A stretch of 32,000 nt of DNA from positions 1 through 32,000 of the forward strand of contig JASJAO010000016.1 in the NCBI GenBank assembly GCA_030066975.1, in the 5' to 3' direction. Both the position numbers and the translations under genes were made by a program. Shown here piece by piece: positions 10,351-30,207 of the stretch. The DNA is from Henriciella sp. (lineage in GTDB: Bacteria; Pseudomonadota; Alphaproteobacteria; Caulobacterales; Hyphomonadaceae). Each line of letters begins with the position of its first letter. Within the stretch, counting starts at the first letter, position 1. Under the pieces are notes generated by a model. It made no database searches. It had not been told where the DNA came from and was given only the letters and a program-made list of their open reading frames with translations.

Positions 10351-11052
10351 CTAAGCGGCGACGGCTTCTTTCTTGGGCTTGGGATCACGCAGAACATAGC
10401 CGCGGCCCCAGACGGTTTCGATGTGATGCTCGCCATTCGTGGCATTGGCCAGCTTCTTGCGCAGCTTACAGATAAACACGTCGATAATCTTCAGTTCCGG
10501 CTCATCCATCCCGCCATACAGGTGGTTGAGGAACATTTCCTTGGTCAGCGTCGTGCCCTTGCGTAGTGAGAGGAGCTCAAACATCTGATATTCTTTGCCG
10601 GTCAGGTGAACGCGCTCATCGTCAACCTCAACCGTCTTCGCATCGAGGTTCACGACAATGTCGCCAGTGCGGATGACGCTTTCCGCGTGGCCTTTGGAGC
10701 GGCGGACAATCGCGGTAATCCGGGCAATCAATTCGTCTTTGTTGAACGGCTTGGTCAAATAGTCGTCGGCGCCGTAACCAAGCGTCTTAACCTTGGCCTC
10801 GATGTCCGGATTGCCTGACAGGATCAGAACCGGTGTGTTCACCCGCGCCATGCGCAGCTGTTTCAACACGTCATAGCCGGAGATATCCGGCAGGGAGAGG
10901 TCGAGAATGATGATGTCATACTCATAGACTTTCCCGAGATCGACGCCTTCTTCGCCAAGGTCGGTCGTGTAGATATTGAAGCCCGCAGCTTTCAACATCA
11001 GTTCAATACTCCGGGCGACGGCGTTGTCGTCCTCAATCAGCAAAACTCTCAT
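10351..11052 (-). CDS. ctrA: Cell-cycle response regulator CtrA (OmpR family)
   Basis: MRVLLIEDD...IILDLSLPD receiver domain and a C-terminal winged helix ending [15 protein letters not shown], closely CtrA-like throughout. GGGGAG lies 6 nt upstream of the ATG at 11052. Confidence 0.93.
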
Positions 11053-11064
11053 TATCAACTCCCC

Positions 11065-11150
11065 GAATCAATCTAGGACGACATTAGCCGCATCGTTAAC
11101 CATTGTGAATCTAAGGCTGCATCCTTACCAAGGATTTAATATTCGGATTC
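11065..11150. promoter_or_regulatory. ctrA upstream region with three GANTC sites and a near-consensus CtrA box
   Basis: GAATC at 11065-11069, GAATC at 11107-11111, GATTC at 11146-11150. TTAC-N7-TTAA at 11125-11139, and a TTAAC half-site at 11096-11100. Confidence 0.4.
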
Positions 11151-11175
11151 GAAACGGTTTTTTTGTTCATACCTG

Positions 11176-12012
11176 TTAACAGTGGACTTCCTTACCGGTG
11201 CGCCCAAGCAGCGTGTGGGCAATGGCAATCGCGTCCATAATTGGCTGTGCAGACGGATCTGTAGAAATCAGTGTTTTCTGGCTGCGAATGGCTTCGCGCA
11301 CCGCATCATCACGCATCACAGTGCCGGCAAGATGCGGGCGGAAGCCCAGAAAAGTCTGGCAGGCGCGCGCAATCGCTTCATATGTGCGCTGACCCCCGGC
11401 CCGCGTTTCAGCCTGGTTGATCGCAACCACCTGCTCCACGTTCGGCGCGTAGCCTTTCAGCACTTTGATGAAAGCATAGGCGTCGGTCATCGACGTCGGT
11501 TCGTCGGTCACAATCATCACCACCTTATCGGCAGCGCGTGCGAGACGCATGCAATTGGCCTCGATACCAGCACCAAGGTCCAGAATGACCTGATCATATT
11601 GCAGGGCCAGGGCTGAGAGACCGGCCGCAAGTCTCGCGACTTCATCAGAGGACAGCTCTGCCAGCGCACCGGACCCGGACCGACCCGGCAGCACATCAAA
11701 GCCGCCTTGGCCAGAGCCGCCATCGACCGGCGTGACCGCATCTTCCAGCTCGACCCAGCCCGCAATCACAGCGGCAAGATCAGTTTCCGGCGCGATGCCG
11801 AGCTGAACATCGACATTTGCGAGGCCAAGATCGCCATCAACCAGCAATGTGCGCTTGCCGGCCTGAGCAAAAGCGCTGGCCAGTGTGATCGACATGAAAG
11901 TCTTACCGACACCACCCTTGCCGGATCCAACTGCGATAATCGAAGCTGGATCAACCCGGCGCGGCGGTTGCTGAGCAGGGCGTTCTTGGGATTTTGGAAG
12001 CAGGAAGCTCAT
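11176..12012 (-). CDS. flhG: MinD/ParA-family ATPase, FlhG (FleN/YlxH)-like
   Basis: Deviant Walker A GSGKGGVGKTF, LLVDGDLGLANV, Walker B VILDLGAG. Its start codon shares one nt with the flhF-like stop (TAATG). Confidence 0.8.
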   Translation of the reverse strand: MSFLLPKSQERPAQQPPRRVDPASIIAVGSGKGGVGKTFMSITLASAFAQAGKRTLLVDGDLGLANVDVQLGIAPETDLAAVIAGWVELEDAVTPVDGGSGQGGFDVLPGRSGSGALAELSSDEVARLAAGLSALALQYDQVILDLGAGIEANCMRLARAADKVVMIVTDEPTSMTDAYAFIKVLKGYAPNVEQVVAINQAETRAGGQRTYEAIARACQTFLGFRPHLAGTVMRDDAVREAIRSQKTLISTDPSAQPIMDAIAIAHTLLGRTGKEVHC

Positions 12013-13016
12013 TATGCGGCTCCTCTCAGGGCTACATGCGCGGGCGCGTCCTCGGTCAGGAGCTGCGCCAGGCGCGTTGGCGTGGCCGGGACAAGCCCGC
12101 CGCCAATGAAGGGGGTCACCGCCAGATGAGAGAAACTCACTTTTGCGGCTGAGAGCGCGGAGACGATGCCGCCTCTTCGTTTGGTCACGTCAAGCTTGGT
12201 GATGATCGCGCGTTTTACACCTGCGCGGGCAAACGCCCGGACTGCTTCGGCTTGATCCTCAGGGTGCCCTTCGGCACTGATCACCAGAACTGGCTCGGCT
12301 TTGATCACCGCGACCAGATCCTGCAGGCTCGCCATATCGTCCTGATCAAACGGAATGATTGCTGGCAGATCGATGACGCAGCGCTGATTGCCAGCCCGGA
12401 TCGTCTTTAACAGGGCAAACAGATCGTCCGGCGTCTTGGCGCTGCGGATCTGCCCTTGTTCCTGTTCCAGATAGGCCGCGAGCTGCGCCCCGCCTGCCGT
12501 GGAGTCGAGATCGGCGGCGACGGGCAGCACTTTGGCGTTCGCAACGGCGGCCCGGCGGGTGAGCTTGGCCGCTGTGGCCGTGCGGCCATGTCCGGGCGGG
12601 CCAACCAGAAGAATGTCACGCTCTGGCATGGCCTGGATCGGATCGCAGGTGATCATGCTTTGCAGACCGGCTGCGATCGCCGCGCTTGGCTCAGAACAAT
12701 CGAAACTATCGGAGACCCCGCTATCGGCGGTGCGATCAGCAAAGCGTTGCGGCGCGCCATGCCAGAGCAGGGCGTCGCGAACCCGGTTGCGGATCGGATT
12801 TTCCACCAGTCGCGGTGACGGCGAGGCCCCCAGGCGGGTCAGGATGCGCGATTCCGTCGGCACCATGCCGCCGCCAAGTTTGTCGGTCGCCGCCCGGACT
12901 TCCACACCGCCCGGCACATCACGCTCGGACAGGATGATGGCATCATCACCCATTTCGGCGAAAATCATCGCTTTTGCGGCCTCAAGGGACTCAGCAGCAA
13001 ATAATTTCATTCGCAT
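12012..13016 (-). CDS. flhF: FlhF-like SRP-type GTPase with degenerate G motifs
   Basis: FlhF-type N-terminus MKLFAAESLEAAKAMIFAEMGDDAIILSERDVPGGVEVRAA. The NG domain has GPPGHGRT in place of GxxGxGKT and DLPA in place of DTAG. TKLD is retained. Confidence 0.78.
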   Translation of the reverse strand: MRMKLFAAESLEAAKAMIFAEMGDDAIILSERDVPGGVEVRAATDKLGGGMVPTESRILTRLGASPSPRLVENPIRNRVRDALLWHGAPQRFADRTADSGVSDSFDCSEPSAAIAAGLQSMITCDPIQAMPERDILLVGPPGHGRTATAAKLTRRAAVANAKVLPVAADLDSTAGGAQLAAYLEQEQGQIRSAKTPDDLFALLKTIRAGNQRCVIDLPAIIPFDQDDMASLQDLVAVIKAEPVLVISAEGHPEDQAEAVRAFARAGVKRAIITKLDVTKRRGGIVSALSAAKVSFSHLAVTPFIGGGLVPATPTRLAQLLTEDAPAHVALRGAA

Positions 13017-13036
13017 ACAAGATCACTCCACTGTCT

Positions 13037-13103
13037 GATTCGGAGTTTCGAGGCGAAAGGTTAACAGAATCTGTCGATTTGTTAGTTTTTACATTACTGA
13101 TTC
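13037..13103. promoter_or_regulatory. flhF upstream region with three GANTC sites and a TTAAC half-site
   Basis: GATTC at 13037-13041, GAATC at 13067-13071, GATTC at 13099-13103, TTAAC at 13061-13065, all inside a 116-bp AT-richer intergenic gap. Confidence 0.35.
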
Positions 13104-13132
13104 ACATTCAGACAGGGTAAAGAGAGGGGCAT

Positions 13133-13393
13133 TTAGGCGGCCCTGCGGCCATCCACGATCTCGCTCAAAGTGACGCCCAACTGGCCATCTGCAATCACCA
13201 GACGGCCCCGTGCCATAAGGCGATCAGACACATAAATATCAACCAGATCAGAGGTTTGGCTTTCCAGCGCGAGAATGTCGCCTTCCGACATTTGCATCAG
13301 CTCATCCATCGGGATACGGGCCTCGCCGAGCACGACATCAATCCGCACCGGCACGTCCATTAAGGATTTCTCTAAAAATCTATTAACACTCAT
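13133..13393 (-). CDS. fliN: Flagellar motor switch protein FliN (SpoA domain only, 86 aa)
   Basis: VPVRIDVVLGEARIPMDELMQMSEGDILAL...RLMARGRLVIADGQLGVTLSEI matches the FliN/SpoA C-terminal domain. Confidence 0.85.
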   Translation of the reverse strand: MSVNRFLEKSLMDVPVRIDVVLGEARIPMDELMQMSEGDILALESQTSDLVDIYVSDRLMARGRLVIADGQLGVTLSEIVDGRRAA

Positions 13394-13429
13394 AACCGCT
13401 CAAATCGTATCGAACCTCGCCCCTTAAGG

Positions 13430-13819
13430 TCAATCGGAATGGTTGCCGAGAGGTGAATGAGGGGTGGAATTTGCAAATAATTCGCCTTGTCCGTCGATCA
13501 AAGTCGCCGCCAGACGCCGCACTTTGGAGAGGGCAATCGTCTTTTCCTCTGAACTCAAAGCCGCTGTTTCAAGCAGGGTCGCGAGCTCGACAATCGTGGC
13601 CAGTGCCTGTTTCAGATCTTCGCTGACCTGTTGCAGGCGTTCAGATTCCGCTGACAGCGTCTCATCCTGTAGAATACGAACCGCCCCGTCCCTTGTCTCA
13701 GCAAGCAGCGCGCGCAGCTCGGCCGCGCTCATCGAGACCAGATCCGGCACCTCCGGCTGAGGTGCAGAAAAGTCACTCTCGAACGGGAAAGGCTGTAGCT
13801 TTTTAATCTCGCGCTTCAT
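13430..13819 (-). CDS. Short FliH/FlbE-position flagellar assembly-like protein
   Basis: 129 aa. N-terminal FPFESDF motif followed by a predicted coiled coil. It occupies the slot between fliG and fliN and has a 4-nt start/stop overlap with fliG. The family call is tentative. Confidence 0.45.
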   Translation of the reverse strand: MKREIKKLQPFPFESDFSAPQPEVPDLVSMSAAELRALLAETRDGAVRILQDETLSAESERLQQVSEDLKQALATIVELATLLETAALSSEEKTIALSKVRRLAATLIDGQGELFANSTPHSPLGNHSD

Positions 13820-14739
13820 TCTACAAGTTCCTCATCGTCGGGATGAATCAGGATGTCGCCGCGTTTAACCAGGGTGCGGGCATGTCCGGTCAGCTCGGCT
13901 CTTGCCGCCTCAATGTCGGCGCGCCGGACCGGCCCCAGCATCTCAATCTCACTCTTCATCAGGTCTCTGGCGCGCTGGGTCATATTATTAAGGAAGGCAT
14001 TCGCGGTCTCCTCACGTGCGCCTTTCAAGGCAAGCGCCAGAACCGAGCGGTCAATGCTGGCCAGAATGGTCTGCAGGCTGGCGGGGTCGAGATGGGCAAT
14101 ATCATCAAAGGTGAACATCAGCGCGCGAATGCGCTCGCCAAGACCGGGCTCTGCGCCATCCAAGGCCGCGAGCAAACCCTGCTCAACCCGTGTCTCAAGA
14201 TTATCGAAGATGCGGGCAATCCGTTCTGTTCCGGCGGCTGGCGATGCCGGCGCGGCGGTCAGGGCCTTTTCGACCGTGGTTTCGATCGCCTGCAGGGCAC
14301 GGGGATGGACCGGGCCAAGATGCAAGAGATGGCGCAAGGCCGGCGTCGCAATCTCACTTGGCAGGTCGCGCACCAGCTCCGCAGCCGTCTTTTCCGGCAG
14401 CTTGGACAAGATCACCGCGATCACGGCGGGCCGCTCCTCTGCCAGGAAACGCGCGGTCACCGCTGTATCCTGGCGCGCGAGCCTCTGCCAAACCGATGGG
14501 GCCTGCCCCATTGCATCGCGTGGCGTCTCAGCCACATCGCGCAAATAGGCCTGGGCGGCCTTCACTTCGCTGACGGGATTATCGTCCAGCGTCTCCATCG
14601 CCTGCGTGAGGTGACGCGCTTCGGAAGGCGACAGCGCAGACCAGACCGCATTCGCTTTCGCGCCGAGCGCGCGCATCAGCGCGGCGCTGCGCAACACGCC
14701 ATCTGGCGCGCCGGATGAGACTTTGGCGGGCAGGGTCAT
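13816..14739 (-). CDS. fliG: Flagellar motor switch protein FliG
   Basis: EERPAVIAVILSKLP (EHPQ-type motif) and C-terminal MFTFDDI...ALKGAREE...MTQRARDLM...LGPVRRADIEAA...LVKRGDILI. The E. coli K264, R281 and R297 equivalents are conserved. Confidence 0.88.
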   Translation of the reverse strand: MTLPAKVSSGAPDGVLRSAALMRALGAKANAVWSALSPSEARHLTQAMETLDDNPVSEVKAAQAYLRDVAETPRDAMGQAPSVWQRLARQDTAVTARFLAEERPAVIAVILSKLPEKTAAELVRDLPSEIATPALRHLLHLGPVHPRALQAIETTVEKALTAAPASPAAGTERIARIFDNLETRVEQGLLAALDGAEPGLGERIRALMFTFDDIAHLDPASLQTILASIDRSVLALALKGAREETANAFLNNMTQRARDLMKSEIEMLGPVRRADIEAARAELTGHARTLVKRGDILIHPDDEELVE

Positions 14740-15380
14740 GAGGCTGCTCCTGGTGTCTCAGACATCCAGGTGCGCAGCAGGCGAACCGTCCCATCAGGAT
14801 TGGCCTCGGCCAGCGCTCCGGCGCGCTCAATTGCGGTGTCTTGAGACAGACCCGGCGGCGCGGCGTCCGGCGCCGCACGGGGCGAAGTGGTCTGTGCGGG
14901 CAGGACCTGCACGGCTCCCGCAGAGCTACGCTCGGCGCCGCGCAGCGACAGTCCCCCAAGGATCAGAACAATCAGTCCGAGCCCTGTCAGTTCCAACGCG
15001 CCCTGATAAGGCACTTGCGATCTTGCGCTGGTTGCGAACTCGAATTCTGACACGGTCAGCGTGTCGGTGCCGGGACGAAATCCGGTACTGGCGGCAAGAA
15101 TTGTTTCGATCCGTTCGATCCTGGCGCTGTCCGGCGCGCCATTGATCAGAACCAGCCAGCTCTTCTCTGGCCCGCCATGCACGGCGACTTTGACCTGTCC
15201 GGGCCCGGTCACGGTTTCCAGCAGCGCGGTCACCTCGCGCTCCTGCTGGCTACCGACCGGCGCTGTCGCCGGGGCGGGCTGCAAAACATCAAACAGGCGC
15301 AGAGAAAAGACCCCCGCCGCCACAAGCAGGGCGACGAGGGTCAAGTTACGCGTGATGGGCGTTCTGGCTGTTGCGGACAT
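14736..15380 (-). CDS. Mini FliF-like ring protein (two TM helices, one RBM3-like core, FliG-binding tail)
   Basis: The ATG at 15380 has GAGAGG 8 nt upstream; a GTG at 15389 is an alternative start. TM1 is LTLVALLVAAGVFSL. The periplasmic segment is VTALLETVTGPGQVKVAV...WLVLINGAPDSARIERIETILAASTGFRPGTDTLTVSEFEF. TM2 is LTGLGLIVLILGGLSL. The tail ends VRLLRTWMSE. 4-nt overlap with fliG. Confidence 0.6.
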   Translation of the reverse strand: MSATARTPITRNLTLVALLVAAGVFSLRLFDVLQPAPATAPVGSQQEREVTALLETVTGPGQVKVAVHGGPEKSWLVLINGAPDSARIERIETILAASTGFRPGTDTLTVSEFEFATSARSQVPYQGALELTGLGLIVLILGGLSLRGAERSSAGAVQVLPAQTTSPRAAPDAAPPGLSQDTAIERAGALAEANPDGTVRLLRTWMSETPGAAS

Positions 15381-15445
15381 TTGCGACACCTCTCGCCCAT
15401 AGATTCTGCGGACCCAAGCTCCGCTTTGTTCTAAGGGCGACGTCG

Positions 15446-15461
15446 TAAACGCCGCTTTAAC
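15446..15461. promoter_or_regulatory. Near-consensus CtrA box upstream of the fliF-like gene
   Basis: TAAA-CGCCGCT-TTAAC, one mismatch to TTAA-N7-TTAAC, 66-81 nt upstream of the ATG. A GATTC site lies at 15402-15406. Confidence 0.35.
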
Positions 15462-15481
15462 GATAAAGGGCTGGTGTCAGC

Positions 15482-15748
15482 CTAGCGGTATTGCTGGATG
15501 CGGGTCGTGCGCAGGCCTTTGCGACCGTGCTTGTTGTACAGCGCGCGCCAGCCTTCAAATTCTTCTTCACTGAGATCGTAGCGCTCGCACGCCTCGTCTT
15601 CGGTCAGCAGACCACCATTCACCGCAGCGACAACTTCTGCCTTGCGGCGCGTCACCCAGCGCGTAATGCCGGGCTTGGGGAGATCCGCGAGTGTGAGTGA
15701 GCGCCCGTCGGGGCCTTTAACACTCATCAAGTGTGCATTCTGAGCCAT
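15482..15748 (-). CDS. sciP: SciP-like small CtrA-inhibitory transcription factor (DUF1153-type HTH)
   Basis: 88 aa: LTLADLPKPGITRWVTRRKAEVVAAVNGGLLTEDEACERYDLSEEEFEGW...RTTRIQQYR. This matches my memory of SciP/DUF1153 proteins and sits next to a fliF-type operon, as in Caulobacter. Confidence 0.78.
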   Translation of the reverse strand: MAQNAHLMSVKGPDGRSLTLADLPKPGITRWVTRRKAEVVAAVNGGLLTEDEACERYDLSEEEFEGWRALYNKHGRKGLRTTRIQQYR

Positions 15749-15825: not shown

Positions 15826-15840
15826 TTAAGGGCGGTTTCA
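15826..15840. promoter_or_regulatory. Near-consensus CtrA box upstream of sciP
   Basis: TTAA-GGGCGGT-TTCA, 78-92 nt upstream of the sciP ATG. Confidence 0.3.
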
Positions 15841-15933: not shown

Positions 15934-16836
15934 TTACAGAACGTTTCCAGCAACCTGGCGAAACTCCTCGCCGAGAATGGTCAGACTGTCGGCCAAGGGC
16001 GAACTGTCGCGCCAGATCAGCGAAATACCGCGCGTTGCAAGGCTGTGATGGATCGGCCGGATGACGAGGTCCGGGTCGCGCCGGGCCTCGGTCAGCGCAT
16101 ACAGGCTCGGCAGGATCGCGATGCCTGCGCCCATTTCCGCCATCTGCCGCACCGCATCCAGGCTGGTGCCCTCATATTCCGCGCTGACAAACGAGCCCGC
16201 CGCGCGCGCAATCGTCTGGATGGTCAGGTTCAATCTGTGCCCATGACCGAGACTCAGCAGGGGACGGTCCTTCAATTCCTTGAGCGAGATCGGATCAGCT
16301 GTGCGCGCAAGCTCATCATCGGCAGCCGCGCAGATCCATAATTGTTCTTCAAACAGCGGCATGTGCGCGACATTCGTATGATCCTCCGGTGTGGAAATGA
16401 TCGCATCAAACCGGCCATCATGCAGATGCTGCTCCAGATCAATCGTGCGCTCTTCGCGCACAAACAAGCGCAGGTCCGGATATTTGCGGTGCAATTGGCG
16501 CGTCGCCAGCGGCAGGAGATATGGCCCGATGGTCGGCAGGATGCCGAGCCGGATACGTCCGGCAAGATCGCCGCGATCATGGCTCGCAATGGCTTTCAAA
16601 TCCTCCACATCGCGCAGGATCTGGCGGCAGCGGCCCAGCAAAGCCTCGCCCTTCGGCGTCAGCAGCGCGCCCTGACGACCACGTTCAAACAGGATCGTGC
16701 CAAGCTGGCCTTCCATTTCAGCGATTTGCGCCGACAGACTGGGCTGGCTGACATTCATGCGGTTCGCCGCCTCGCCGAACCGGCCCGTATCCGCCACCGC
16801 AACAAAATACTGAAGCTGTCTCAGAGTAGGACGCAT
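15934..16836 (-). CDS. LysR-family regulator, OxyR-like but lacking both redox cysteines
   Basis: HTH LRQLQYFVAVADTGRFGEAANRMNVSQPSLSAQI, and GILPTIGPYLLP as in OxyR. The position of E. coli LEDGHCLRDQAMGFCFEAG reads LGHGHRLNLTIQTIARAAG. Confidence 0.88.
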   Translation of the reverse strand: MRPTLRQLQYFVAVADTGRFGEAANRMNVSQPSLSAQIAEMEGQLGTILFERGRQGALLTPKGEALLGRCRQILRDVEDLKAIASHDRGDLAGRIRLGILPTIGPYLLPLATRQLHRKYPDLRLFVREERTIDLEQHLHDGRFDAIISTPEDHTNVAHMPLFEEQLWICAAADDELARTADPISLKELKDRPLLSLGHGHRLNLTIQTIARAAGSFVSAEYEGTSLDAVRQMAEMGAGIAILPSLYALTEARRDPDLVIRPIHHSLATRGISLIWRDSSPLADSLTILGEEFRQVAGNVL

Positions 16837-22743: not shown

Positions 22744-23964
22744 ATGGCGGCACTTGAGATGAATGAGCCTGGGGTTGTTGAGCCACCTGTAGAGAGTGGA
22801 CGGGCACGCAATGTATTATTACGGCGGCTGATCGATTATGTCGCGATGCCCGCCTCGCGCGTTGCTCCGCAAGATCGCTCGATGGGCGGCGACATCCTGC
22901 TCGATATGCTGTTTCACTCCTCTGACGAAGAGCGTCTTTTGTGTGCGCGCCGCCTCGCCACGATGCGCGAAGCGCCGCGTCGCCTGATCCGCTATCTGGC
23001 CCAGTGCGATTTTCCAATCGCCGAACCTTTGTTGAGAGAAAACCCTGCCTTCTCCTCTTCGGACCTCTGCAATCTCATCGAGAAGGTCTCGCCAGAACAT
23101 CGGCGGGTGATCGCCCAGCGAAAAACCGTCGAGCCGGTCGTCTGTGATCAACTGGCGCGCGTGGGTGAGTTGGAGGCGGTTCTGGACCTGTTGAACAATA
23201 AGGGCGCGGACTTGTCTGAACATGCGATCGATTTGCTGATCTCCCGCTCGCGCACTGAGACCGAGATCTGCTCGGCGCTTGTGCATCGTCTGGAGCTGCG
23301 CCCGGCGCAAGGCATGGCGATGTTCTGGTGGAGTGATGAAAAGACCCGCCGCAAGATCCTGTCCCGCTTTGCAGCAGACCGGGCGGAAATGATCGAGATG
23401 TGCTCGGACGTTTTTGCCATGGCGGCAGAGGAGAACTGGCAAGATCCGGTGGCCCGCAAAACCCTGCAGCTGATTGAGCGGCGCCAACGCAACCGGGCTG
23501 CGATCGAAAAGAGCCAGTTTGAGAGTCTGGAAGAGGCGATTACCACGGCGTCGGTTGCCGGTACGAGTCCGGAATATGCACAAGAGATCGGCTATCTGGC
23601 GGGGATCAAGCCGGTCACGGTCGCGAAGATATTGGAGGATCTTGGCGGCGAAGGGCTCGCGGTCATCTGCAAGGCAACCGGCCTCAAGCGCAAGTATCTT
23701 CAACTGCTCTGGACGTCGCTGCGCCGACCCCTGGAAACCGAAGAGGGCGAACCAACCGAGCACTTCCGCAAGGTCCAGGAGGTTTATGACATTCTGAGCG
23801 TCGCCAAAGCTCAAACGACACTGCGCTATTGGAACTGGTCGCTATCATCGGCCTTCTCACCCACACAGGTGGATGCAGCCGCCCTTGAAGAAGACGAAGC
23901 CAATGATGAAACAGCTTTTTCATCGGCACGGCGAACCGCGCGCCTCGTTTTTGGCACCAGCTAA
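22744..23964 (+). CDS. DUF2336 domain protein (alpha-helical repeat)
   Basis: 406 aa. Helical repeats such as PIAEPLLRENPAFSSSDLCNLI and VCDQLARVGELEAVLDLLNNKGADLSEHAIDLLISRS match my memory of DUF2336. Confidence 0.6.
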   Translation: MAALEMNEPGVVEPPVESGRARNVLLRRLIDYVAMPASRVAPQDRSMGGDILLDMLFHSSDEERLLCARRLATMREAPRRLIRYLAQCDFPIAEPLLRENPAFSSSDLCNLIEKVSPEHRRVIAQRKTVEPVVCDQLARVGELEAVLDLLNNKGADLSEHAIDLLISRSRTETEICSALVHRLELRPAQGMAMFWWSDEKTRRKILSRFAADRAEMIEMCSDVFAMAAEENWQDPVARKTLQLIERRQRNRAAIEKSQFESLEEAITTASVAGTSPEYAQEIGYLAGIKPVTVAKILEDLGGEGLAVICKATGLKRKYLQLLWTSLRRPLETEEGEPTEHFRKVQEVYDILSVAKAQTTLRYWNWSLSSAFSPTQVDAAALEEDEANDETAFSSARRTARLVFGTS

Positions 23965-24063: not shown

Positions 24064-24546
24064 GTGGGTTATTTTATTGGGTTGATTGTGGTGCTGACCG
24101 GGCTCTGGCTCGGCCTGTCAGGCCTGTATAAAACGCTCATCCTGTCGCTTGGTGTCGTGTCGATCATCCTCTCGACCATCCTCGCCTACCGTTTTGATAT
24201 TCTTGACCGTGAAGGCTCGCCTTATGGGCGTCTGCCGCAACTCATCTCTTACTGGGCCTGGCTGGTGGTTGAGATCTTCAAGGCCAATTGGGTCGTGGTC
24301 AAAGCCTGTTTGCGGGCGCAGTTGGACATCAACCCGGCGCTGGTGAAGCTGAAGACCTGCTGCGAAAGCGATCTTGCCCGCACGGTCTTTGCCAATTCGA
24401 TTACCCTGACGCCCGGCACGGTCAGCGTCACGATCGAAGGCGACAAGATCCTGGTCCATGCCCTGTACGAGGAAGAGGCGCATCCGGAAGCGTTTGAGGA
24501 AATGGACCGGCGGTCAAGAGCCGCCTCTGATGGAGGTCGCGCATGA
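24064..24546 (+). CDS. mrpE: Mrp/Mnh antiporter subunit E
   Basis: GTG start. ANWVVVKACL...NSITLTPGTVSV...ILVHAL is typical of MnhE. Confidence 0.85.
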   Translation: MGYFIGLIVVLTGLWLGLSGLYKTLILSLGVVSIILSTILAYRFDILDREGSPYGRLPQLISYWAWLVVEIFKANWVVVKACLRAQLDINPALVKLKTCCESDLARTVFANSITLTPGTVSVTIEGDKILVHALYEEEAHPEAFEEMDRRSRAASDGGRA

Positions 24547-24830
24547 TCGGCGCTGCGGCACTGGCTTTTGTAATCGCGATCGCATTGATGCTGATCCGGG
24601 CGCTGTACGGGCCGACCCTGTATGATCGGGTTCTGGCTGTGAATTCGCTCGGGACAAAGATTATCCTGTTATTGGGCGTGATGGGCTTCTTGCTTGGGCG
24701 GCCGGACTTTCTTGATATCTCGGTGCTCTATGCGCTGATCAACTTTGTCGCGACAATCGCGATCCTGAAATTCTTCCGATACAGATCCTTCCAAGTGCCA
24801 CTGATCCGCAAGTCGGGGGACCGGCAATGA
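24543..24830 (+). CDS. mrpF: Mrp/Mnh antiporter subunit F
   Basis: 95 aa, three hydrophobic helices, YDRVLAVNSLGTKIILLL motif, ATGA overlap. Confidence 0.85.
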   Translation: MIGAAALAFVIAIALMLIRALYGPTLYDRVLAVNSLGTKIILLLGVMGFLLGRPDFLDISVLYALINFVATIAILKFFRYRSFQVPLIRKSGDRQ

Positions 24831-25183
24831 CAGAAATCATGGGCATTCTCATGCAGATCAAGCCGGTGCTTGGCGCTTTCCTATGCCTGGTCGGCGGTGT
24901 TCTGGCGATCATTGGTACCGTCGGGGTGCTGCGCTTCCCTGATTTCTATTCCCGCCTCCACGCCGCCAGCGTTATCGATACATCTGCGGCCACGCTGGCG
25001 ATTATCGGCATGATGCTGCTCGCACCGACCTGGCTGATCGTCTTTAAACTTGGCGTGGTTTGGCTGTTCCTGTTCCTGACCGGCCCGACCTCCAGCCATG
25101 CGCTTGCCAATGCCGCCCACACCGCCGGTGTCGAACCGCTGATCGGGCGACGTAATGGCGATGATGAAGGAGCTGATTCATGA
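24827..25183 (+). CDS. mrpG: Mrp/Mnh antiporter subunit G
   Basis: GTVGVLRFPDFYSRLHAASVIDT motif, ATGA overlap. Confidence 0.85.
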   Translation: MTEIMGILMQIKPVLGAFLCLVGGVLAIIGTVGVLRFPDFYSRLHAASVIDTSAATLAIIGMMLLAPTWLIVFKLGVVWLFLFLTGPTSSHALANAAHTAGVEPLIGRRNGDDEGADS

Positions 25184-25809
25184 GCGGCTATGAAGGCTCA
25201 GATCTGTTCATCGCACTGTTGAACATCACGCTCTTGTCGATCCTGTTCGTGATCGCGATTGCGATTGCGCGGCTTCGCAGCCTGTTTGCGATTGTCATGC
25301 TGTCGGGCATTTATTCCCTGGTTTCAGCGACATGGTTCGTCGCGCTCGATGCGGTGGATGTCGCGTTTACAGAAGCCTCGGTCGGTGCAGGCATCTCAAC
25401 GGCGCTGTTCCTCGGCGCGATGTTGCTGACCTCGCGAACCGCCAAGGCCGAAGAGGGCATTACCAAAATCGTCCCGCTCCTCGTGGTCATTGCGACCGGG
25501 GCGATGCTTGTCTATGCGAGCATCGATCTGCCTGCCTTTGGCGATCCAAACTCACCGGCGAACACACATGTCGGGGTTGAGTATCTGGAGCGAACCAAGC
25601 CGGAGATTGCTATTCCGAACGTCGTCACCGCGGTCCTGGCGAGCTATCGTGGCTTTGATACGCTGGGCGAGGTTGGCGTGGTGTTTGCTGCCGGTCTCGC
25701 CGTTGTCTTGCTGCTTGGCTTTGGGGAGCGGTCTCTCGGGGCGACCGTTCGCCAGAAAGATCGCGAAATCGATACAAACGCGAACCCGGGGGGCGAAGAT
25801 GAACGGTGA
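25180..25809 (+). CDS. DUF4040 / MrpA C-terminal-domain-like subunit (MbhD-like)
   Basis: LDAVDVAFTEASVGAGIST matches the DUF4040 signature. Membrane protein of 209 aa. Confidence 0.8.
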   Translation: MSGYEGSDLFIALLNITLLSILFVIAIAIARLRSLFAIVMLSGIYSLVSATWFVALDAVDVAFTEASVGAGISTALFLGAMLLTSRTAKAEEGITKIVPLLVVIATGAMLVYASIDLPAFGDPNSPANTHVGVEYLERTKPEIAIPNVVTAVLASYRGFDTLGEVGVVFAAGLAVVLLLGFGERSLGATVRQKDREIDTNANPGGEDER

Positions 25810-26251
25810 CCATCACGTCATTCTACGCGTTGTCGCCAAGGCGCTGATCCCGATCATCGCGCTGTTTGGCTTTTATGTGCACTTTCATGGCGAATACAGC
25901 CCCGGCGGCGGATTCCAGGCGGGCGTCATTCTGGCGGTCAGCATCATTCTTTACTCTCTGATCTTCGGAATTGCCCCGACGATGCGTGCGGTCACGCCCG
26001 GGTTTGCCCGCGCGGTCGCTGCGTTTGGCTTTCTGCTGTATACCGGCGTTGGTGTGGTTGCTCTGATCCGAGGCGGGAATTTCCTCGACTATGACGCCCT
26101 GATCCGGGACGAGCCCGGCGGGCATCTTGGCCAGCATGTCGGCATCATTGTGATTGAACTCGGCGTGCTGTTTGCCGTCGCCGGTTCGATGGTGACGATC
26201 TTCTATGCCTTTGCCGGCCGGGTCAGTGAAATCCGCGATGAGGACTGGTGA
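25799..26251 (+). CDS. mrpB: Mrp/Mnh antiporter subunit B
   Basis: Start trimmed to the ATG at 25799, giving an 11-nt overlap. ALIPIIALFGFYVHFHGEYSPGGGFQAGVILA is a MnhB signature. Confidence 0.85.
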   Translation: MNGDHHVILRVVAKALIPIIALFGFYVHFHGEYSPGGGFQAGVILAVSIILYSLIFGIAPTMRAVTPGFARAVAAFGFLLYTGVGVVALIRGGNFLDYDALIRDEPGGHLGQHVGIIVIELGVLFAVAGSMVTIFYAFAGRVSEIRDEDW

Positions 26252-26793
26252 ATATGGTTGAGTTTGTCCTCGAGCGCGGAAATTATTGGGCGATTATCGG
26301 CCTGATGATGATTGGGCTGTATATCGCGTTCGCCGCGACCAATCTGATCAAGCGCCTGGTTGGTCTCGGCCTGTTTCAGACCTCGATTATTCTGTTCTAC
26401 ACCTCGCTTTCACGCATCAGTGGAGGCACCGCACCGATCCTGTACGGCAAGGACTATAAGAGCAGCTATGAGGACAAGGACAGCCATGGCGAAACGGCTG
26501 CAAACGGCGCTGAGTATGCTGGTGAAGCCGCTACAGACGCGGCCTATGGCTACACCAATGCAGGGCTCGAAAACGTCTACTCCAATCCGCTGCCGCATGT
26601 TTTGATGCTGACCGCGATTGTCGTTGGGGTGGCGACGCTGGCGGTTGGACTGGCCATCATCGTACGCATTCGTGAGGCCTATGGCACGGTCGAGAGTGAT
26701 GAGATCCGCGAGATGGATTTGCAAGTGGCCCTAGCCGAGGCTCAGGACGAGGCGGACGAGCTGAGCCTGGCAAGCGGAGCGACGCGCGGATGA
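26248..26793 (+). CDS. mrpC: Mrp/Mnh subunit C (NuoK-like) with an enlarged TM2-TM3 loop and acidic tail
   Basis: TM1-TM2, then NPLPHVLMLTAIVVGVATLAVGLAII (TM3) as in MrpC. 181 aa against roughly 110 typical. Confidence 0.8.
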   Translation: MNMVEFVLERGNYWAIIGLMMIGLYIAFAATNLIKRLVGLGLFQTSIILFYTSLSRISGGTAPILYGKDYKSSYEDKDSHGETAANGAEYAGEAATDAAYGYTNAGLENVYSNPLPHVLMLTAIVVGVATLAVGLAIIVRIREAYGTVESDEIREMDLQVALAEAQDEADELSLASGATRG

Positions 26794-28322
26794 TCGAGAT
26801 GTTGAGTTCACTGGTGCCGGACACTGTTGCCGCGCACGCGCCAGCGCTGCTCGTCGTCGTGCCGATGATTACCGCACCGATCGCGGCGATGATGCCGAAC
26901 GGTCGGATTGCCTGGTTCCTCAGCCTGCTGGCGACAGCGGCGTCGCTGCTGATGGCGGTGGTGATCCTGTCTCAGGTGCGCTCTATCGAGGGCGGCGCTG
27001 TCCTGTCCTACGCGATGGGCGGCTGGGCGCCGCCAGCCGGGATTGAATTTCGCATCGACGGCTTGAACGCCATGGTCCTGTTGCTGGTGTCGATTATCGG
27101 TTTTCTGGCGACCATTTTCAGCTGGCCGAGCGTCAAAGCTGAAATTCGCGACGCTAAGATTGCGATGTTCTATTCGGCCTATCTGGTCTGCTTTACCGGT
27201 CTGTGCGGTGTGGCCTCGACCGGAGATGCGTTTAACCTGTTCGTCTTCCTCGAGATCTCCTCAATCGCGACCTATGTGCTGGTCGCGCTGGGGGCAGGCC
27301 AGGACCGGCGCGCGCTTCCGGCCGCCAGTCATTACCTGCTGCTTGGTACGATTGGGGCGTCGCTGTTCGTCGTCGGCGTGGGCTTCCTCTATGCGGCAAC
27401 CGGCACGCTGAACATGGCTGAGCTCTCGGTGATGCTGCCGCAAATCCCAAACAACAAGGCGGTGATGGCGGGCTATGCCTTTATCGTGGTCGGGCTGGGC
27501 ATCAAGGCGGCGATGTTCCCGCTGCATCAATGGCTGCCGAATGCCTATGCCTACAGTCCGAGTTTTGTGACGACTTTCCTGGCGGCGACCGCCACAAAAG
27601 TCGCGATTTATGCGCTGGTGCGCTTCCTGTTCACCGTGTTCGGACTGGAGTTCGTGTTCGAAGGCTCAACCCTGATCTGGGTGCTGATGCCGATGGGGAT
27701 AGCGGGCATGGTGGCCTGTTCGTTCCAGGCGGTCTTTCAGACGGATGTCCGCCGAACACTTGCTTATTCTTCGGTGGCCCAGGTCGGTTATATGTTGCTG
27801 GGCATATCGCTCGCGACTGCGGCCGGTGTTTCAGCAGGCCTGTTCCATCTGTTCAACCACGCGATCATCAAAGGCGCACTGTTCATGGCGCTGGCCGGTA
27901 TGGTTCTGTCGCATCAGGGGACAAGCCTGAACGATTGCCGCGGCATGGGCCGCACCGCGCCATGGACGATGACCGCATTTGCCATTTCCGGTCTGTCTCT
28001 GATCGGGGTGCCGCTGACGGCCGGGTTCCAGTCCAAGTTTGCGCTCGTCTCCGCGCTGCTCGACAGCGGCTGGTGGTGGGGCGCCTTGATCGTTGTGTTC
28101 ACCAGTGTGCTGGCTGTGATCTATATGGGGCGGATCCTTGAAGCGGTGTTCTTCAAGGCGCCGGTCAACCCGAATAAACGCCGCAAGGAAGCCCCGCTGA
28201 TGATCCTGATACCGCTCTGGATTTTGGCGATTTCGAATATCTGGATCGGGGTTCAGAGTGATTTTGTGTTCGGGCTGGCCCGTGATGCCGCGGCGATGTT
28301 GATCCTGGGAGGTCCGCAATGA
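26790..28322 (+). CDS. Antiporter-like subunit (MrpD/NuoN family)
   Basis: Proton-conducting membrane transporter family: FVFLEISSIATY (TM5 Glu), KAAMFPLHQWLPNAY (TM7 Lys), HLFNHAIIKGALFM. Confidence 0.88.
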   Translation: MIEMLSSLVPDTVAAHAPALLVVVPMITAPIAAMMPNGRIAWFLSLLATAASLLMAVVILSQVRSIEGGAVLSYAMGGWAPPAGIEFRIDGLNAMVLLLVSIIGFLATIFSWPSVKAEIRDAKIAMFYSAYLVCFTGLCGVASTGDAFNLFVFLEISSIATYVLVALGAGQDRRALPAASHYLLLGTIGASLFVVGVGFLYAATGTLNMAELSVMLPQIPNNKAVMAGYAFIVVGLGIKAAMFPLHQWLPNAYAYSPSFVTTFLAATATKVAIYALVRFLFTVFGLEFVFEGSTLIWVLMPMGIAGMVACSFQAVFQTDVRRTLAYSSVAQVGYMLLGISLATAAGVSAGLFHLFNHAIIKGALFMALAGMVLSHQGTSLNDCRGMGRTAPWTMTAFAISGLSLIGVPLTAGFQSKFALVSALLDSGWWWGALIVVFTSVLAVIYMGRILEAVFFKAPVNPNKRRKEAPLMILIPLWILAISNIWIGVQSDFVFGLARDAAAMLILGGPQ

Positions 28323-29830
28323 TCACAGGTGAATGGGCCATTCTCGCCGCGCTCGGCCTGCCGCTGATTATCTGCCTCGGCATTTATCTTGCCGGGAAAG
28401 TCCCTGATCTTCGCGAGGGCGTGACGCTCCTTGGCGCTGCTGCCTTGTTCGTGGTGGCGATCATCATCGCCGCTCAAGTGGCTGACGGAAATCCGCCGGA
28501 ACTGGAGCTTTGGGAAGCCTTGCCGGGGCTCAGCTTTGCGTTCAAGGCCGAACCGATCGGGGCTCTGTTCGCCCTGGTGGCGAGCGGTTTGTGGATCGTC
28601 AACAGCTTCTATTCGATCGGCTATATGCGCGGCAATCGTGAGCGTAATCAGACCCGGTTCTATATGTGCTTTGCCATCGCCCTGTTCGGGGCCATGGGCG
28701 TGGCCTTGTCGGCCAATCTGTTCACGCTGTTTGTGTTCTACGAGATTCTGACCCTGTCGACCTATCCGCTGGTCGCGCACAAAGGGGATGCCAACGCGCA
28801 GCGCGGGGCCCGCATCTATCTGATGACGCTTCTGGGCACTTCCATCGGCTTCCTGCTCGTCGCGGTGGTCTGGACATATACGCTCGCTGGAAGCCTTGAT
28901 TTCGTCCCGGGCGGTTTGCTGGCTCAGGTCGAGGACCTGTCGCCGGTGATTGCCAGCGTCCTGCTGCTGCTATTTGCCTTTGGGGTAGGGAAGGCAGCTC
29001 TGATGCCATTCCATTTCTGGCTACCGAATGCGATGGTGGCGCCGACACCGGTCTCGGCGCTCTTGCACGCGGTTGCCGTTGTAAAAGCCGGTGTGTTTAC
29101 CGTCCTCAAAGTGGCAATCTATATCTTCGGCGAGGATTTGCTGAACGAGACCGCGTCTCGGGATTTCCTGCTGGCGCTCGCCTGTTTCACCATCATCGTC
29201 GCCTCACTGGTGGCGATCACCAAAGACAATCTGAAGGCTCGCCTTGCTTATTCGACCGTGGCGCAGCTTGCCTATGTCACCTGCGGCGCGATGCTCGCCA
29301 CCAGTACCGGCTTCATGGGCGGGGCCTTGCAGATCGCGGCGCATGCGGCCGGCAAGATCACGCTCTTTATGTGCGCCGGGGCGATTTATGTAGCGACGGG
29401 CAAGACCAATATTTCCGAAATGAAGGGGCTCGGAAAGCGCATGCCGCTGGTCTTTATTGCCTTCTTTATCGCGTCCCTGTCGATCATCGGCATTCCGCCG
29501 CTCGCGGGCGATTGGCCGAAATATGAGCTGATGCAAGGCGCGGCGGATTCCGGGTCAGACTATGTTCCGTATGTGCTCATCCTGTCATCGCTGCTCAACA
29601 TCGCCTATTTGATCCCGATTTCGGTGGTCGCCTTGATGCCACCGCCCGGGTCACCCGAACCGGCCCCGTTCAAGCGGCCTGGCGGCGCGCCCATGTTGAC
29701 CGTGGCGGCACCCTGTTTCACCGCTTTGCTGTGTTTCGTCATGTTTTTTGGGGTCGGTCCGATCTCTGAATTCCTCGAACCGGTATTCTATGGTGTGACC
29801 AGCACTCAGGCTGAAGGAGGCATGCCATGA
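28319..29830 (+). CDS. mrpD: Antiporter-like subunit (MrpD/NuoM family)
   Basis: FVFYEILTLSTYPL, KAALMPFHFWLPNAMVAPTPVSALLHAVAVVKAG. Confidence 0.9.
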   Translation: MITGEWAILAALGLPLIICLGIYLAGKVPDLREGVTLLGAAALFVVAIIIAAQVADGNPPELELWEALPGLSFAFKAEPIGALFALVASGLWIVNSFYSIGYMRGNRERNQTRFYMCFAIALFGAMGVALSANLFTLFVFYEILTLSTYPLVAHKGDANAQRGARIYLMTLLGTSIGFLLVAVVWTYTLAGSLDFVPGGLLAQVEDLSPVIASVLLLLFAFGVGKAALMPFHFWLPNAMVAPTPVSALLHAVAVVKAGVFTVLKVAIYIFGEDLLNETASRDFLLALACFTIIVASLVAITKDNLKARLAYSTVAQLAYVTCGAMLATSTGFMGGALQIAAHAAGKITLFMCAGAIYVATGKTNISEMKGLGKRMPLVFIAFFIASLSIIGIPPLAGDWPKYELMQGAADSGSDYVPYVLILSSLLNIAYLIPISVVALMPPPGSPEPAPFKRPGGAPMLTVAAPCFTALLCFVMFFGVGPISEFLEPVFYGVTSTQAEGGMP

Positions 29831-30207
29831 CGGATCCACTTGAGCGGGATTCCAGCGGCCGGTTTGTGAAGCCGCCAGAGCAGACGCCGAATATGCCAAC
29901 CGGCGCCGACGATGTTCATCCTGTTGGACGCTTGCTGTTCGGCTGGGTTGAGAACAAACGCACGCCTAGCATCCTGCTGGGGCTGGTCGTTCTGGTCATT
30001 ATCGGCCTGACGGTGGCGGATCTCTTGGTTGATCGCCACGATTATTTCGACTTTGCCAATACTGTCTGGTTTTACAGCCTGTGGGGCTTTGGGGCCTTCG
30101 CCCTGGCGGTCCTGTCAGGTTGGCCGCTGGGGCATTTGCTGCGCCGGGACGAAGATTATTATGGTGAAGCTGAGACCCGCCCCGATGATGTGGAGGCGGA
30201 CGAATGA
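29827..30207 (+). CDS. Uncharacterised small two-TM protein embedded in the mrp-like operon
   Basis: 126 aa with ATGA overlaps on both sides. Two hydrophobic helices flanked by acidic termini. No family recognised. Confidence 0.55.
   Translation: MTDPLERDSSGRFVKPPEQTPNMPTGADDVHPVGRLLFGWVENKRTPSILLGLVVLVIIGLTVADLLVDRHDYFDFANTVWFYSLWGFGAFALAVLSGWPLGHLLRRDEDYYGEAETRPDDVEADE

Follow-up and report, generated by a model that had tools for sequence, protein, structure and literature searches.

A stretch of 32,000 nucleotides from Henriciella sp., a marine stalked bacterium of the family Hyphomonadaceae (assembly GCA_030066975.1, contig JASJAO010000016.1, positions 1 to 32,000; hereafter the window) carries on its minus strand eight co-oriented genes in which short relatives of the flagellar rotor proteins are enclosed by sciP and ctrA. 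The order is sciP, a gene for a 214-amino-acid (aa) FliF-like protein (mini-fliF), a fliG paralogue, a gene for a 129-aa protein (FliH-N-like), a fliN paralogue, an flhF-like gene, flhG and ctrA (Table 1). All eight open reading frames (ORFs), which an earlier note had proposed from the sequence alone, were confirmed, together with the overlapping start and stop codons at 14736-14739 (ATGA), 13816-13819 (ATGA) and 12012 (TAATG). The gene identities hold as well: CtrA and SciP both score above their NCBIfam equivalog cut-offs (NF045991, NF051866), and the labels 'FliF-like' and 'FliH-position', which Pfam does not support, are now supported by profile comparisons. The gene annotations of the window likewise bear out that it contains no gene for the export gate (flhA, flhB, fliPQR), the export ATPase, the rod, the hook or the stator, and no further flagellar gene was found among the genes of the window beyond the block. 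The same flagellar gene classes are also absent from the flanks of about 10 kb of the related loci.

Reduced rotor proteins of the block

The structural proteins of the block are short, as had been noticed earlier: mini-FliF, FliG, FliH-N-like and FliN measure 214, 307, 129 and 86 aa, compared to 588, 374, 209 and 116 aa in the nearest full-size cluster (L131). For mini-FliF, neither Pfam nor NCBIfam gave a match above threshold with the protein of the window, whose sequence recurs unchanged in a Henriciella sp. metagenome-assembled genome (MAG) as a hypothetical protein; NCBI labels members of the family hypothetical, and the JGI COG annotation labels some of them FliF/YscJ. When an alignment of ten orthologues was compared with 35 full-length FliFs using hhalign, the two matched with a probability of 96.9% (E 1.7e-10) over the last part of the third ring-building motif (RBM3), the second transmembrane helix (TM2) and the C-terminus. 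A family profile of 88 sequences (A2), searched against 1.84 billion representative proteins, returned 210 matches, about 140 of which were clusters (50% identity) of proteins of 200-235 aa, and it reached full-length FliFs (500-570 aa) only at E values of about 1e-6 to 1e-5, through their C-terminal thirds.

Against the sequences in the PDB, the A2 profile aligned residues 38-69 of mini-FliF with residues 238-269 of Salmonella FliF (the first helix and strand of RBM3) and residues 78-212 with residues 397-558 (the remainder of RBM3, followed by TM2 and the tail ...IRQWMSND), skipping the beta-collar insert at about residues 270-396. Only the core of RBM3 (FliF residues 238-269 and 397-440) is thus present. 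Nothing in Salmonella FliF before residue 238 was aligned by the profile, and Pfam YscJ_FliF (PF01514, RBM1/RBM2) gave no match in nine mini-FliF members even at E values up to 10, while YscJ_FliF_C (PF08345) was matched below threshold in five of the nine (best E 0.011). Mini-FliF is therefore without RBM1, RBM2 and the beta-collar, as the gaps in the alignment with Salmonella FliF show. The AlphaFold2 model (predicted local distance difference test score 78 overall and above 90 in the periplasmic domain) consists of a transmembrane helix, an alpha-beta-beta-alpha-beta domain, a second transmembrane helix, a disordered linker and two helices, so that two transmembrane helices flank the periplasmic region, as in FliF. 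A Foldseek search of the PDB with this model gave weak matches to PrgK domain 2, EscJ and FliF (target-normalized TM-score about 0.5), the ring-building-motif matches having E values of about 0.01-0.02 in a list dominated by unrelated small alpha/beta domains. The cytoplasmic tail aligns with the C-terminus of Salmonella FliF (...DPRVVALVIRQWMSND), with two other solved FliFs and with the FliF of L003, and residues A187, A191, P195, T198 and W205 are invariant in the 88 sequences. In addition, mini-fliF lies directly upstream of fliG, with the ATGA overlap in the window and with a stop codon followed by an immediate ATG in the relatives. Judged by these alignments and the predicted fold, the 214-aa protein is a true FliF derivative in which TM1, the RBM3 core, TM2 and the putative FliG-binding tail have been kept.

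Another short FliF-like family (P0339, P0340 and P0347; 285-321 aa, in a cluster of 32 members), encoded on contigs of up to 100 kb, aligns with the profile of mini-FliF in RBM3, in TM2 and in the tail. It may represent an independent or intermediate reduction of FliF in other organisms.

The FliG paralogue is matched by Pfam FliG_N (partially), FliG_M and FliG_C, scores 140.6 bits on TIGR00207 (cut-off 226.7) and, compared to the FliG of L131, L138 and L003, lacks 27 aa where its N domain ends. Its AlphaFold2 model is all-helical and forms three blocks, with only moderate confidence. The earlier observation that the torque-helix charges are kept (K of LKGA, R of TQRA and R of GPVR) proved correct, and one acidic residue (E) can be added to them, S occupying the first acidic position; among 120 members of the FliG family, the K is found in 99%, the R in 100%, the first acidic residue (D or E) in 77%, the second in 100% and the last R in 100%. 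The FliM-contact motif of the family (equivalent to EHPQR) is E-S-P-Q...R, conserved at 97-100% in the same 120 members. The window belongs with L001 and P0005 to a small clade whose motif reads E-R-P-A/Q...H (FliG residues about 102-105 and 137); between genomes of this clade with 98% identity in CtrA and FlhG, mini-FliF, FliG and FliH-N-like reach only 56-69%. With the FliG of L003 and L004, which have the ancestral gene order described below, the FliG of the window shares 35% identity, versus 25-31% with that of loci laid out like the main flagellar cluster of Hyphomonas neptunium (fliN-fliP-fliG); a recent duplication of the main-cluster FliG was therefore rejected. A scan of genome contigs for FliG by exact 8-mers returned mostly ordinary FliGs. 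The FliN paralogue, which contains the SpoA/FliMN_C domain, scores 79.6 bits on TIGR02480, just under the cut-off of 84.05, and is without the 30-40 or so N-terminal residues present in the FliN of L131 and L003.

The 129-aa protein and its family had no match in Pfam or the PDB, profile search included, and hhalign gave nothing significant against the distant FliH alignment of L003 and L004. When 54 distinct orthologues of 116-140 aa, taken from 60 loci, were combined in a profile, however, it matched residues 2-107 of the 209-210-aa proteins encoded between fliG and fliN in L131 and L138 (91% and E 1e-6 by hhalign; 28.8 and 22.7 bits by hmmsearch), and these proteins score below the threshold of Pfam FliH (20.7 and 17.6 vs 24.1 bits). 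An N-terminal F-x-F-x-x-D-F-S motif is invariant in the family. As the protein ends at the equivalent of about residue 107 of 209, the C-terminal FliI-binding half is absent; it is this half of FliH that binds the export ATPase. We read the 129-aa protein as the probable N-terminal half of a FliH-like protein.

An ancestral operon and its probable reduced descendants

Full-size operons with the same gene order indicate where the block may have come from. Two of them, L131 and L138, come from uncultured alphaproteobacteria. L131 reads sciP-fliF(588 aa)-fliG(374)-fliH(209)-fliN(116)-flbD(456)-flhA(703)-flhF(327)-flhG, tightly packed; L138 has the same order with sciP first; and L003, a Rhodospirillales MAG, reads fliF(561 aa)-fliG-fliH-fliN-flbD-like-flhA-flhF-flhG. 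The block shares with this group identical order and orientation, tight packing, and 68-70% identity in SciP and 69% in FlhG, but the group carries FliF of 588-592 aa with both Pfam FliF domains (561 aa in L003), FliG of 374 aa, FliH of 209-210 aa and FliN of 116-117 aa, possesses FlbD and FlhA, and keeps GKT in the P-loop of FlhF. The order in L131 and L138 thus shows the block to be this operon, internally shortened and without flbD and flhA. The earlier note had assumed that flhF-flhG and ctrA took over the positions of flbD and flhA; since the full-size loci have flbD-flhA-flhF-flhG in series, this has to be revised to a deletion of flbD and flhA. Thus, the block is a dismantled old operon, with internal deletions in fliF, fliG, fliH and fliN, rather than a new assembly of genes. 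Together with flbD and flhA, all segments that serve export and the rod (RBM1, RBM2 and the beta-collar of FliF, and the C-terminal half of FliH) have been lost in the Hyphomonadaceae lineage, whereas the membrane anchors, one ring-building motif, the predicted contact between the FliF tail and FliG_N, the stator-facing charges of FliG, the SpoA domain of FliN and the N-terminal motif of FliH have been kept.

The class II fliF neighborhood of Caulobacter crescentus has the order sciP-fliF-fliG-(fliH/flbE position)-fliN and CtrA-controlled early flagellar promoters in common with the block. The genes between CC_0905 and CC_0910 we take to be fliG, flbE, fliN and flbD. In Caulobacter, however, FliF has its full length, the operon builds the only flagellum, and flbD and flhA follow fliN, with no flhF or flhG, whereas the FliF of the window is a 214-aa protein with a single ring-building motif, and fliN is followed by flhF-flhG-ctrA, flbD and flhA having been lost. 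The likeness in order, which the earlier note had pointed out, agrees with the locus numbers of sciP (CC_0903), fliF (CC_0905) and flhA (CC_0910) in the tables of Leicht et al. (2020, PMC7200025).

In H. neptunium, a complete flagellar gene set exists beside what appears to be the reduced one. The main cluster, HNE_0241-0276, comprises fliL (0241), fliF (0242, M-ring), fliN (0244), fliP (0245), fliG (0246), motB (0251), fliI (0268), flgB, flgC, fliE, fliQ, flhA (0273), fliR and flhB; a separate set consists of sciP (HNE_1390), a hypothetical gene (1391), a 'putative FliG' (1392) and another hypothetical gene (1393); and a third group contains an 'FlhF homolog' (HNE_0942), motR (0943) and ctrA (0944) (PMC7200025). 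The FlhA of H. neptunium is only 40% identical to that of Caulobacter (PMC7200025), and the fliN-fliP-fliG order of its main cluster is that of the Amaricoccus/Rhodobacterales loci L048-L062. As the complete cluster stands alongside the reduced set in H. neptunium, the latter can be regarded as a paralogous relic that has been maintained. A single polar flagellum is present in all Henriciella species. From the gene layouts we infer that the reduced set is probably a vertical remnant of the old operon and that the other cluster builds the flagellum. In Amaricoccus sp. B4 (L054), whose flagellar cluster is laid out like the main cluster of H. neptunium, an ORF resembling SciP/DUF1153 (11009-11167; 43% identity over 54 aa) lies directly downstream of fliG, so that SciP-type genes may be associated with alphaproteobacterial flagellar clusters of either kind.

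The reduced block recurs in L001, in L065-L069 and in about 65 SciP-anchored metagenome loci. Scanning metagenome contigs from SciP yielded 80 loci, 65 of them reduced, 3 full-size and 12 without visible FliG, 11 of which lie on contigs that end within 1.2 kb of sciP; the reduced form occupies 65 of the 68 informative loci. Among the 65, the arrangement is compact as in the window in 28, has an insert of 0.85-2.8 kb between fliN and flhF in 8, is split (no flhF within at least 1.5 kb of fliN) in 13 and is cut by contig ends in 16. The sciP-to-fliN and flhF-flhG-ctrA parts are accordingly separable, being split in H. neptunium and in the 13 metagenome loci. In Hyphomonas sp. Mor2 and four JGI contigs, SciP is followed by proteins of 213-225 aa, about 308 aa (FliG; 289 aa in one gene call), 116-117 aa and 88 aa (FliN), and one to six unrelated genes precede FlhF, FlhG and CtrA. 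Named members of the family come from Henriciella pelagia and a Hyphomonas species, and the module is common in marine metagenomes. Assembly or frameshift artefacts were rejected as the cause of the short lengths, which are repeated in dozens of independent assemblies, including complete genomes. The interval between fliN and flhF, the former site of flbD and flhA, is a hotspot for unrelated cargo in L065-L069 and L071-L091, with up to six genes, among them those for a fatty-acid hydroxylase, a peptidase S9, an FMO-like oxidoreductase, SLAC1 and TetR; it is empty in the window and in 28 metagenome loci.

Between the window and L001, identity is high for SciP (98%), CtrA (98%), FlhG (99%), FlhF (94%) and FliN (88%), as for the housekeeping neighbors (84-97%), and falls to 69% for FliG, 67% for FliH-N-like and 56% for mini-FliF. 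The ratios of nonsynonymous to synonymous substitutions (dN/dS; Nei-Gojobori, four genome pairs), which are approximate because dS is close to saturation, were 0.13-0.35 for mini-FliF, 0.09-0.21 for FliG, 0.08-0.14 for FliH-N-like, 0.03-0.045 for FliN, 0.02-0.05 for FlhF, 0.007-0.03 for FlhG and below 0.04 for CtrA and SciP (both 0.013 against L001). Mini-FliF, FliG and FliH-N-like are relaxed, yet clearly remain constrained. With dN/dS below 1 in all four pairs, steady lengths and conserved start/stop overlaps, the block is maintained rather than decaying, as the earlier note had supposed.

Regulatory motifs and the FlhF-FlhG pair

Three CtrA-box-like motifs lie in the upstream regions of the block, preceding sciP (TGAAACCGCCCTTAA), mini-fliF (TTAAAGCGGCGTTTA) and ctrA (TTAAATCCTTGGTAA). 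Upstream of sciP, TGAAAC-N5-TTAA occurs at 67-93 nt in 7 of 7 loci, and the near-invariant TTAAAGCG[C/G]CGTTTA is found 75-81 nt 5' of the mini-fliF start in all seven, where the proteins are only about 40% identical. CtrA may bind at the motif upstream of mini-fliF and may control that promoter. The fliN-flhF gap (13014-13136, 118 bp), which is AT-rich compared to the flanking genes, contains a GTTAACC half-site and no full CtrA box, despite a chromatin immunoprecipitation sequencing (ChIP-seq) peak of CtrA upstream of flhF in H. neptunium. In that species, ChIP-seq peaks of CtrA are present at sciP (HNE_1390), at flhF and at the promoter of ctrA itself, and sciP drops 13-40-fold upon depletion of CckA or ChpT (Leicht et al. 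2020, PMC7200025).

The FlhF-like protein matches PF00448 (E 6.5e-15), scores 72.7 bits on TIGR03499, below the cut-off of 174, and has FlhF structures (2px0, 8r9r) as its best PDB matches, its N-terminus aligning with the FlhF of L003. Its GTPase motifs are altered: the window and all 40 of the reduced-module loci examined read G[PA]PGHGRT and ID[LM]P[AS]I (instead of DTAG), compared to GSGKT with DCPS in L131 and GAGKT with DTGG (VDTGGL) in L003. Despite these changes the protein is 68-94% conserved, and its dN/dS of 0.02-0.05 signifies strong purifying selection. FlhF here looks like a conserved pseudo-GTPase. As the Walker A lysine-to-arginine and DTAG-to-DLPA changes occur in all 40 loci, the GTP-dependent cycle described for FlhF therefore probably does not apply here. 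FlhG, in contrast, retains both the deviant Walker A motif GKGGVGKT and DGDLGLANVDV, with Pseudomonas aeruginosa FleN (5j1j, E 3.6e-42) and FlhG (4rz2, E 2.6e-31) as PDB matches.

FlhF and FlhG (FleN) are responsible for polar placement and number control of flagella in Vibrio, Shewanella, Pseudomonas and Campylobacter, and contacts of FlhF with FliF and of FlhG with the C-ring are known in other polar flagellates. The pair in the window resembles these systems in the adjacency of flhF and flhG, the intact ATPase motifs of FlhG and the signal recognition particle (SRP)-type fold of FlhF, and differs from them in the two FlhF substitutions.

Table 1. Coordinates of the genes and sequence features of the reduced block in the window
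Feature	Position	Strand	Basis or remark
sciP (88 aa, CtrA inhibitor)	15482..15748	-	NF051866 129.2 bits vs cut-off 100; DUF1153 match
mini-fliF (214 aa from ATG 15380; 217 aa from GTG 15389)	14736..15380	-	profile comparison with full FliFs
TM helix 1 of mini-FliF (residues 8-33)	15282..15359	-	AlphaFold2 model
Ring-building motif of mini-FliF (alpha-beta-beta-alpha-beta, residues 45-112), RBM3 core without beta-collar	15045..15248	-	AlphaFold2 and profile alignment
TM helix 2 of mini-FliF (residues 125-153)	14922..15008	-	AlphaFold2; aligns with FliF TM2
C-terminal cytoplasmic helices of mini-FliF (residues 180-207), predicted FliG-binding motif LAExxPxxTxxLxRxWM	14760..14843	-	profile alignment
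fliG paralogue (307 aa)	13816..14739	-	Pfam FliG_N, FliG_M, FliG_C
FliH-N-like protein (129 aa)	13430..13819	-	profile match to FliH-position proteins of L131/L138
fliN paralogue (86 aa, SpoA domain only)	13133..13393	-	FliMN_C (PF01052) E 1.2e-21
flhF-like (334 aa), degenerate GTPase motifs	12012..13016	-	SRP54-type domain; TIGR03499 best NCBIfam match
FlhF P-loop GPPGHGRT, Walker A lysine to arginine (residues 139-146)	12579..12602	-	40/40 loci
FlhF DLPA in place of DTAG (G3; residues 215-220)	12357-12374	-	40/40 loci
flhG / fleN (278 aa), MinD-type ATPase	11176..12012	-	FleN/FlhG structure matches; motifs intact
ctrA (233 aa from ATG 11052; ORF open from TTG 11058)	10351..11052	-	NF045991 412.3 bits vs cut-off 350
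CtrA-box-like motif TGAAACCGCCCTTAA upstream of sciP	15826..15840	-	one mismatch to TTAA-N7-TTAA
CtrA-box-like motif TTAAAGCGGCGTTTA upstream of mini-fliF	15446..15460	-	conserved in 7/7 loci
CtrA-box-like motif TTAAATCCTTGGTAA upstream of ctrA	11125..11139	-	one mismatch; also in L001 and L068 only
TTAAAGCGSCGTTTA			candidate CtrA/SciP target sequence

The other genes of the window encode Hsp33, GltX, CtaA, L13, S9, ArgC, GNAT, LysR, TetR, SDR, MFS and DUF2336 proteins and an Mrp antiporter, and the window contains no tRNA or Rfam match. A LysR-family regulator (15934-16836, minus strand) adjoins sciP upstream in the same orientation, in synteny with L001 only, and a DUF2336 protein of 406 aa, from a family typical of alphaproteobacteria, is encoded 7 kb from sciP (22744-23964, plus strand), its gene being found at the same position only in L001 and hence lying outside the conserved module. 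Both neighbors, common to L001 only, were rejected as part of the conserved synteny. An operon for an Mrp-type Na+/H+ antiporter (24064-31991, plus strand; MnhE, MbhD/E, MnhB, a 4L-like protein and three Proton_antipo_M proteins) reaches the end of the window.

A rotor-derived module and its possible roles

Taken together, these data favor, with a probability of about 0.6, the view that the block is a conserved remnant of an ancestral alphaproteobacterial class II operon of early flagellar genes, sciP-fliF-fliG-fliH-fliN-flbD-flhA-flhF-flhG(-ctrA), kept as a polar rotor-like scaffold. On the basis of its domain content, the reduced set would be incompetent for export and thus not a miniature flagellum. 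The assembly, localization and role that we infer for the module are as follows. CtrA-dependent promoters would set the timing of expression, and coupled translation would yield mini-FliF, FliG and FliH-N-like. Mini-FliF would then enter the inner membrane and oligomerize via its single ring-building motif, its tail would hold the FliG paralogue, and FliN and FliH-N-like would dock beneath, the product being a non-secreting membrane scaffold resembling a rotor or C-ring. Together with the motif-degenerate FlhF and with FlhG, this scaffold might serve as a device for polar placement, seeding or a checkpoint for the real flagellum, a role suggested by the ancestral, separable and common association with FlhF and FlhG and by the known contacts of these proteins with FliF and the C-ring. 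Our best guess is accordingly a CtrA-timed, membrane-anchored, rotor-like scaffold acting with FlhF and FlhG at the pole.

The earlier note had left a choice between an exceptionally reduced basal-body core and a rotor-derived polar membrane complex controlled by CtrA and SciP. The former is contradicted by the missing RBM1, RBM2 and beta-collar of mini-FliF and the missing C-terminal half of the FliH-like protein, and by the full FliF, FliG, FliN, FlhA, FlhB, FliPQR and FliI that H. neptunium has elsewhere. The latter comes closest to our best reading in being rotor-derived and linked to CtrA and SciP, while polar localization and direct control by CtrA are presumed.

Several observations weigh against the scaffold reading. 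The CtrA-like boxes have one mismatch each, and the four found window-wide compare with 1.85 expected, a non-significant excess. HNE_1391-1393 are outside the lists of genes changed at least 2.5-fold upon depletion of CckA or ChpT and are found only in the DivJ regulon, up 1.5-2.1-fold (PMC7200025); being listed there, they are therefore expressed. The presumed orthology of these three genes derives from gene order and annotation rather than from sequence, and the complete flagellar cluster in the organism of the window is extrapolated from H. neptunium and from Henriciella motility. In addition, dS is near saturation, the E-S-P-Q...R motif and torque charges of FliG fit a working motor that meets FliM and MotA, and the proteins of the module are described here from sequences and predicted models.

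A more specific form of the scaffold reading, which we consider possible but doubtful, is that the five structural genes build an autonomous non-secreting polar ring, i.e., a mini MS-ring consisting solely of RBM3 cores with a cytoplasmic ring of FliG and FliN, timed by CtrA and SciP and positioned by the pseudo-GTPase FlhF and by FlhG. Rather than a stock of spare parts, it would then be an organelle of a new kind, acting as a landmark or seed by which assembly of the true flagellum is templated or licensed, or as a stator-binding device. If so, this would be the first case of flagellar rotor proteins repurposed as a separate membrane complex in a normally flagellated bacterium.

It appears unlikely, on the balance of the following points, that the paralogues are instead working parts of the single polar motor, co-assembling with or replacing main-cluster proteins in the rotor and C-ring (mini-FliF perhaps through RBM3-RBM3 contacts), where they might tune torque, switching or stator recruitment. 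The torque charges (about 100%) and the FliM-contact motif (97-100%), conserved as they are in the 120 family members, would be expected of such parts, as would the resemblance of the mini-FliF tail to that of full FliFs; the block, having no FliM or MotAB of its own, would have to draw these partners from the main set. However, the evolution of FliG, mini-FliF and FliH-N-like outpaces that of the flanking genes 5-30 times (an identity of 100% in CtrA goes with only 59-80% in FliG), mini-FliF is without the beta-collar, which makes up the continuous wall of the S-ring, the FliM-contact motif has been altered to E-R-P-A...H in the very lineage of the window, and in Rhodobacterales-like loci main-type clusters occur with no sciP or reduced set nearby.

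There is only a small chance that the module has left motility altogether and forms a polar or envelope complex that feeds the CtrA/SciP circuit or the polarity of stalk and bud, with flhF and flhG co-opted. The tight and ancient linkage to sciP and ctrA might be taken as a sign of this, but it is ancestral and is also present in the full-size operons L131 and L138, and thus does not point to a new function. An FlhF that has lost its GTPase motifs while being 68-94% conserved (dN/dS 0.02-0.05) would suit a scaffold whose job has changed, and all named carriers are dimorphic prosthecate bacteria; the conserved stator-facing residues of FliG speak against this reading nonetheless.

That the module is a functionless relic in slow decay, which persists by co-transcription with the essential sciP and ctrA or by its position between them, is very improbable. 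Although mini-FliF, FliG and FliH-N-like are the fastest-evolving proteins locally (56-69% identity, compared to 84-98% for the neighbors), every protein has lost segments and the fliN-flhF site tolerates unrelated inserts, dN/dS is 0.09-0.35 at saturated dS in four pairs, the ORFs are intact with tight lengths in about 140 clusters (50% identity) and about 60 loci, and the ATGA overlaps and promoter motif are conserved. Moreover, the module persists apart from flhF-flhG-ctrA in 13 loci and in H. neptunium. Finally, the absence of other flagellar genes from the 32 kb could suggest that the block is the only rotor and MS-ring set, a miniaturized basal body, or else an assembly artefact, but this can practically be discarded, as the parts of FliF that enclose the export gate and touch the rod (RBM1, RBM2 and the beta-collar) are missing from mini-FliF, a full FliF and an export apparatus are encoded elsewhere in H. 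neptunium, and dozens of independent assemblies, complete genomes among them, show the same short lengths.

Among known systems, the closest precedent for a reduced FliF is the short FliF of Chlamydiaceae, which is fused to FliG, has a reduced periplasmic part and has few flagellar genes beside it (Bergeron 2016, PeerJ, PMC4768692). The chlamydial protein is, however, about 330 aa long, has two ring-building motifs, one of them RBM2, is joined to a FliG_M-like domain and belongs to non-flagellate bacteria (PMC4768692), whereas the FliF of the window has 214 aa and the RBM3 core only, is separate from a three-domain FliG and occurs in flagellated carriers. The dual flagella of Rhodobacterales (fla1, fla2 and fla3; Cereibacter sphaeroides) are similar in that two sets of different origins coexist and motility is CtrA-controlled, but there both sets are complete and each builds a flagellum (mSystems 2025, PMC12363192), while the second set here comprises five structural genes with no export, rod, hook or stator components. 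A hat-like structure seen by cryo-electron tomography is likewise a flagellum-related inner-membrane complex and is present in H. neptunium (2022, J Bacteriol, PMC9380563). Identity with this structure is very unlikely, given that it also occurs in E. coli, Bacillus and many non-Hyphomonadaceae and depends on FliP and FlhA (PMC9380563), which are absent from the module. Our literature search found no published description of the module and no paper on the locus tags HNE_1391-1394, and the module goes unmentioned in the 2025 survey of flagellar clusters in Rhodobacterales (PMC12363192).

The block documents the dismantling of an operon in one lineage, and the ancestral sciP-fliF...flhG(-ctrA) layout ties the CtrA circuit physically to the early flagellar genes. 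That an FlhF lacking the canonical GTPase motifs is strongly conserved calls the GTP-switch model of polar placement into question. The reduced set also indicates that rotor parts, namely one ring-building motif, the FliF-FliG joint, the stator face of FliG, FliN and the N-terminus of FliH, are still useful in the absence of export and rod, and it offers a natural minimal system for studies of MS-ring and C-ring nucleation. As H. neptunium, a carrier of the module, is genetically tractable, the hypothesis is testable there.

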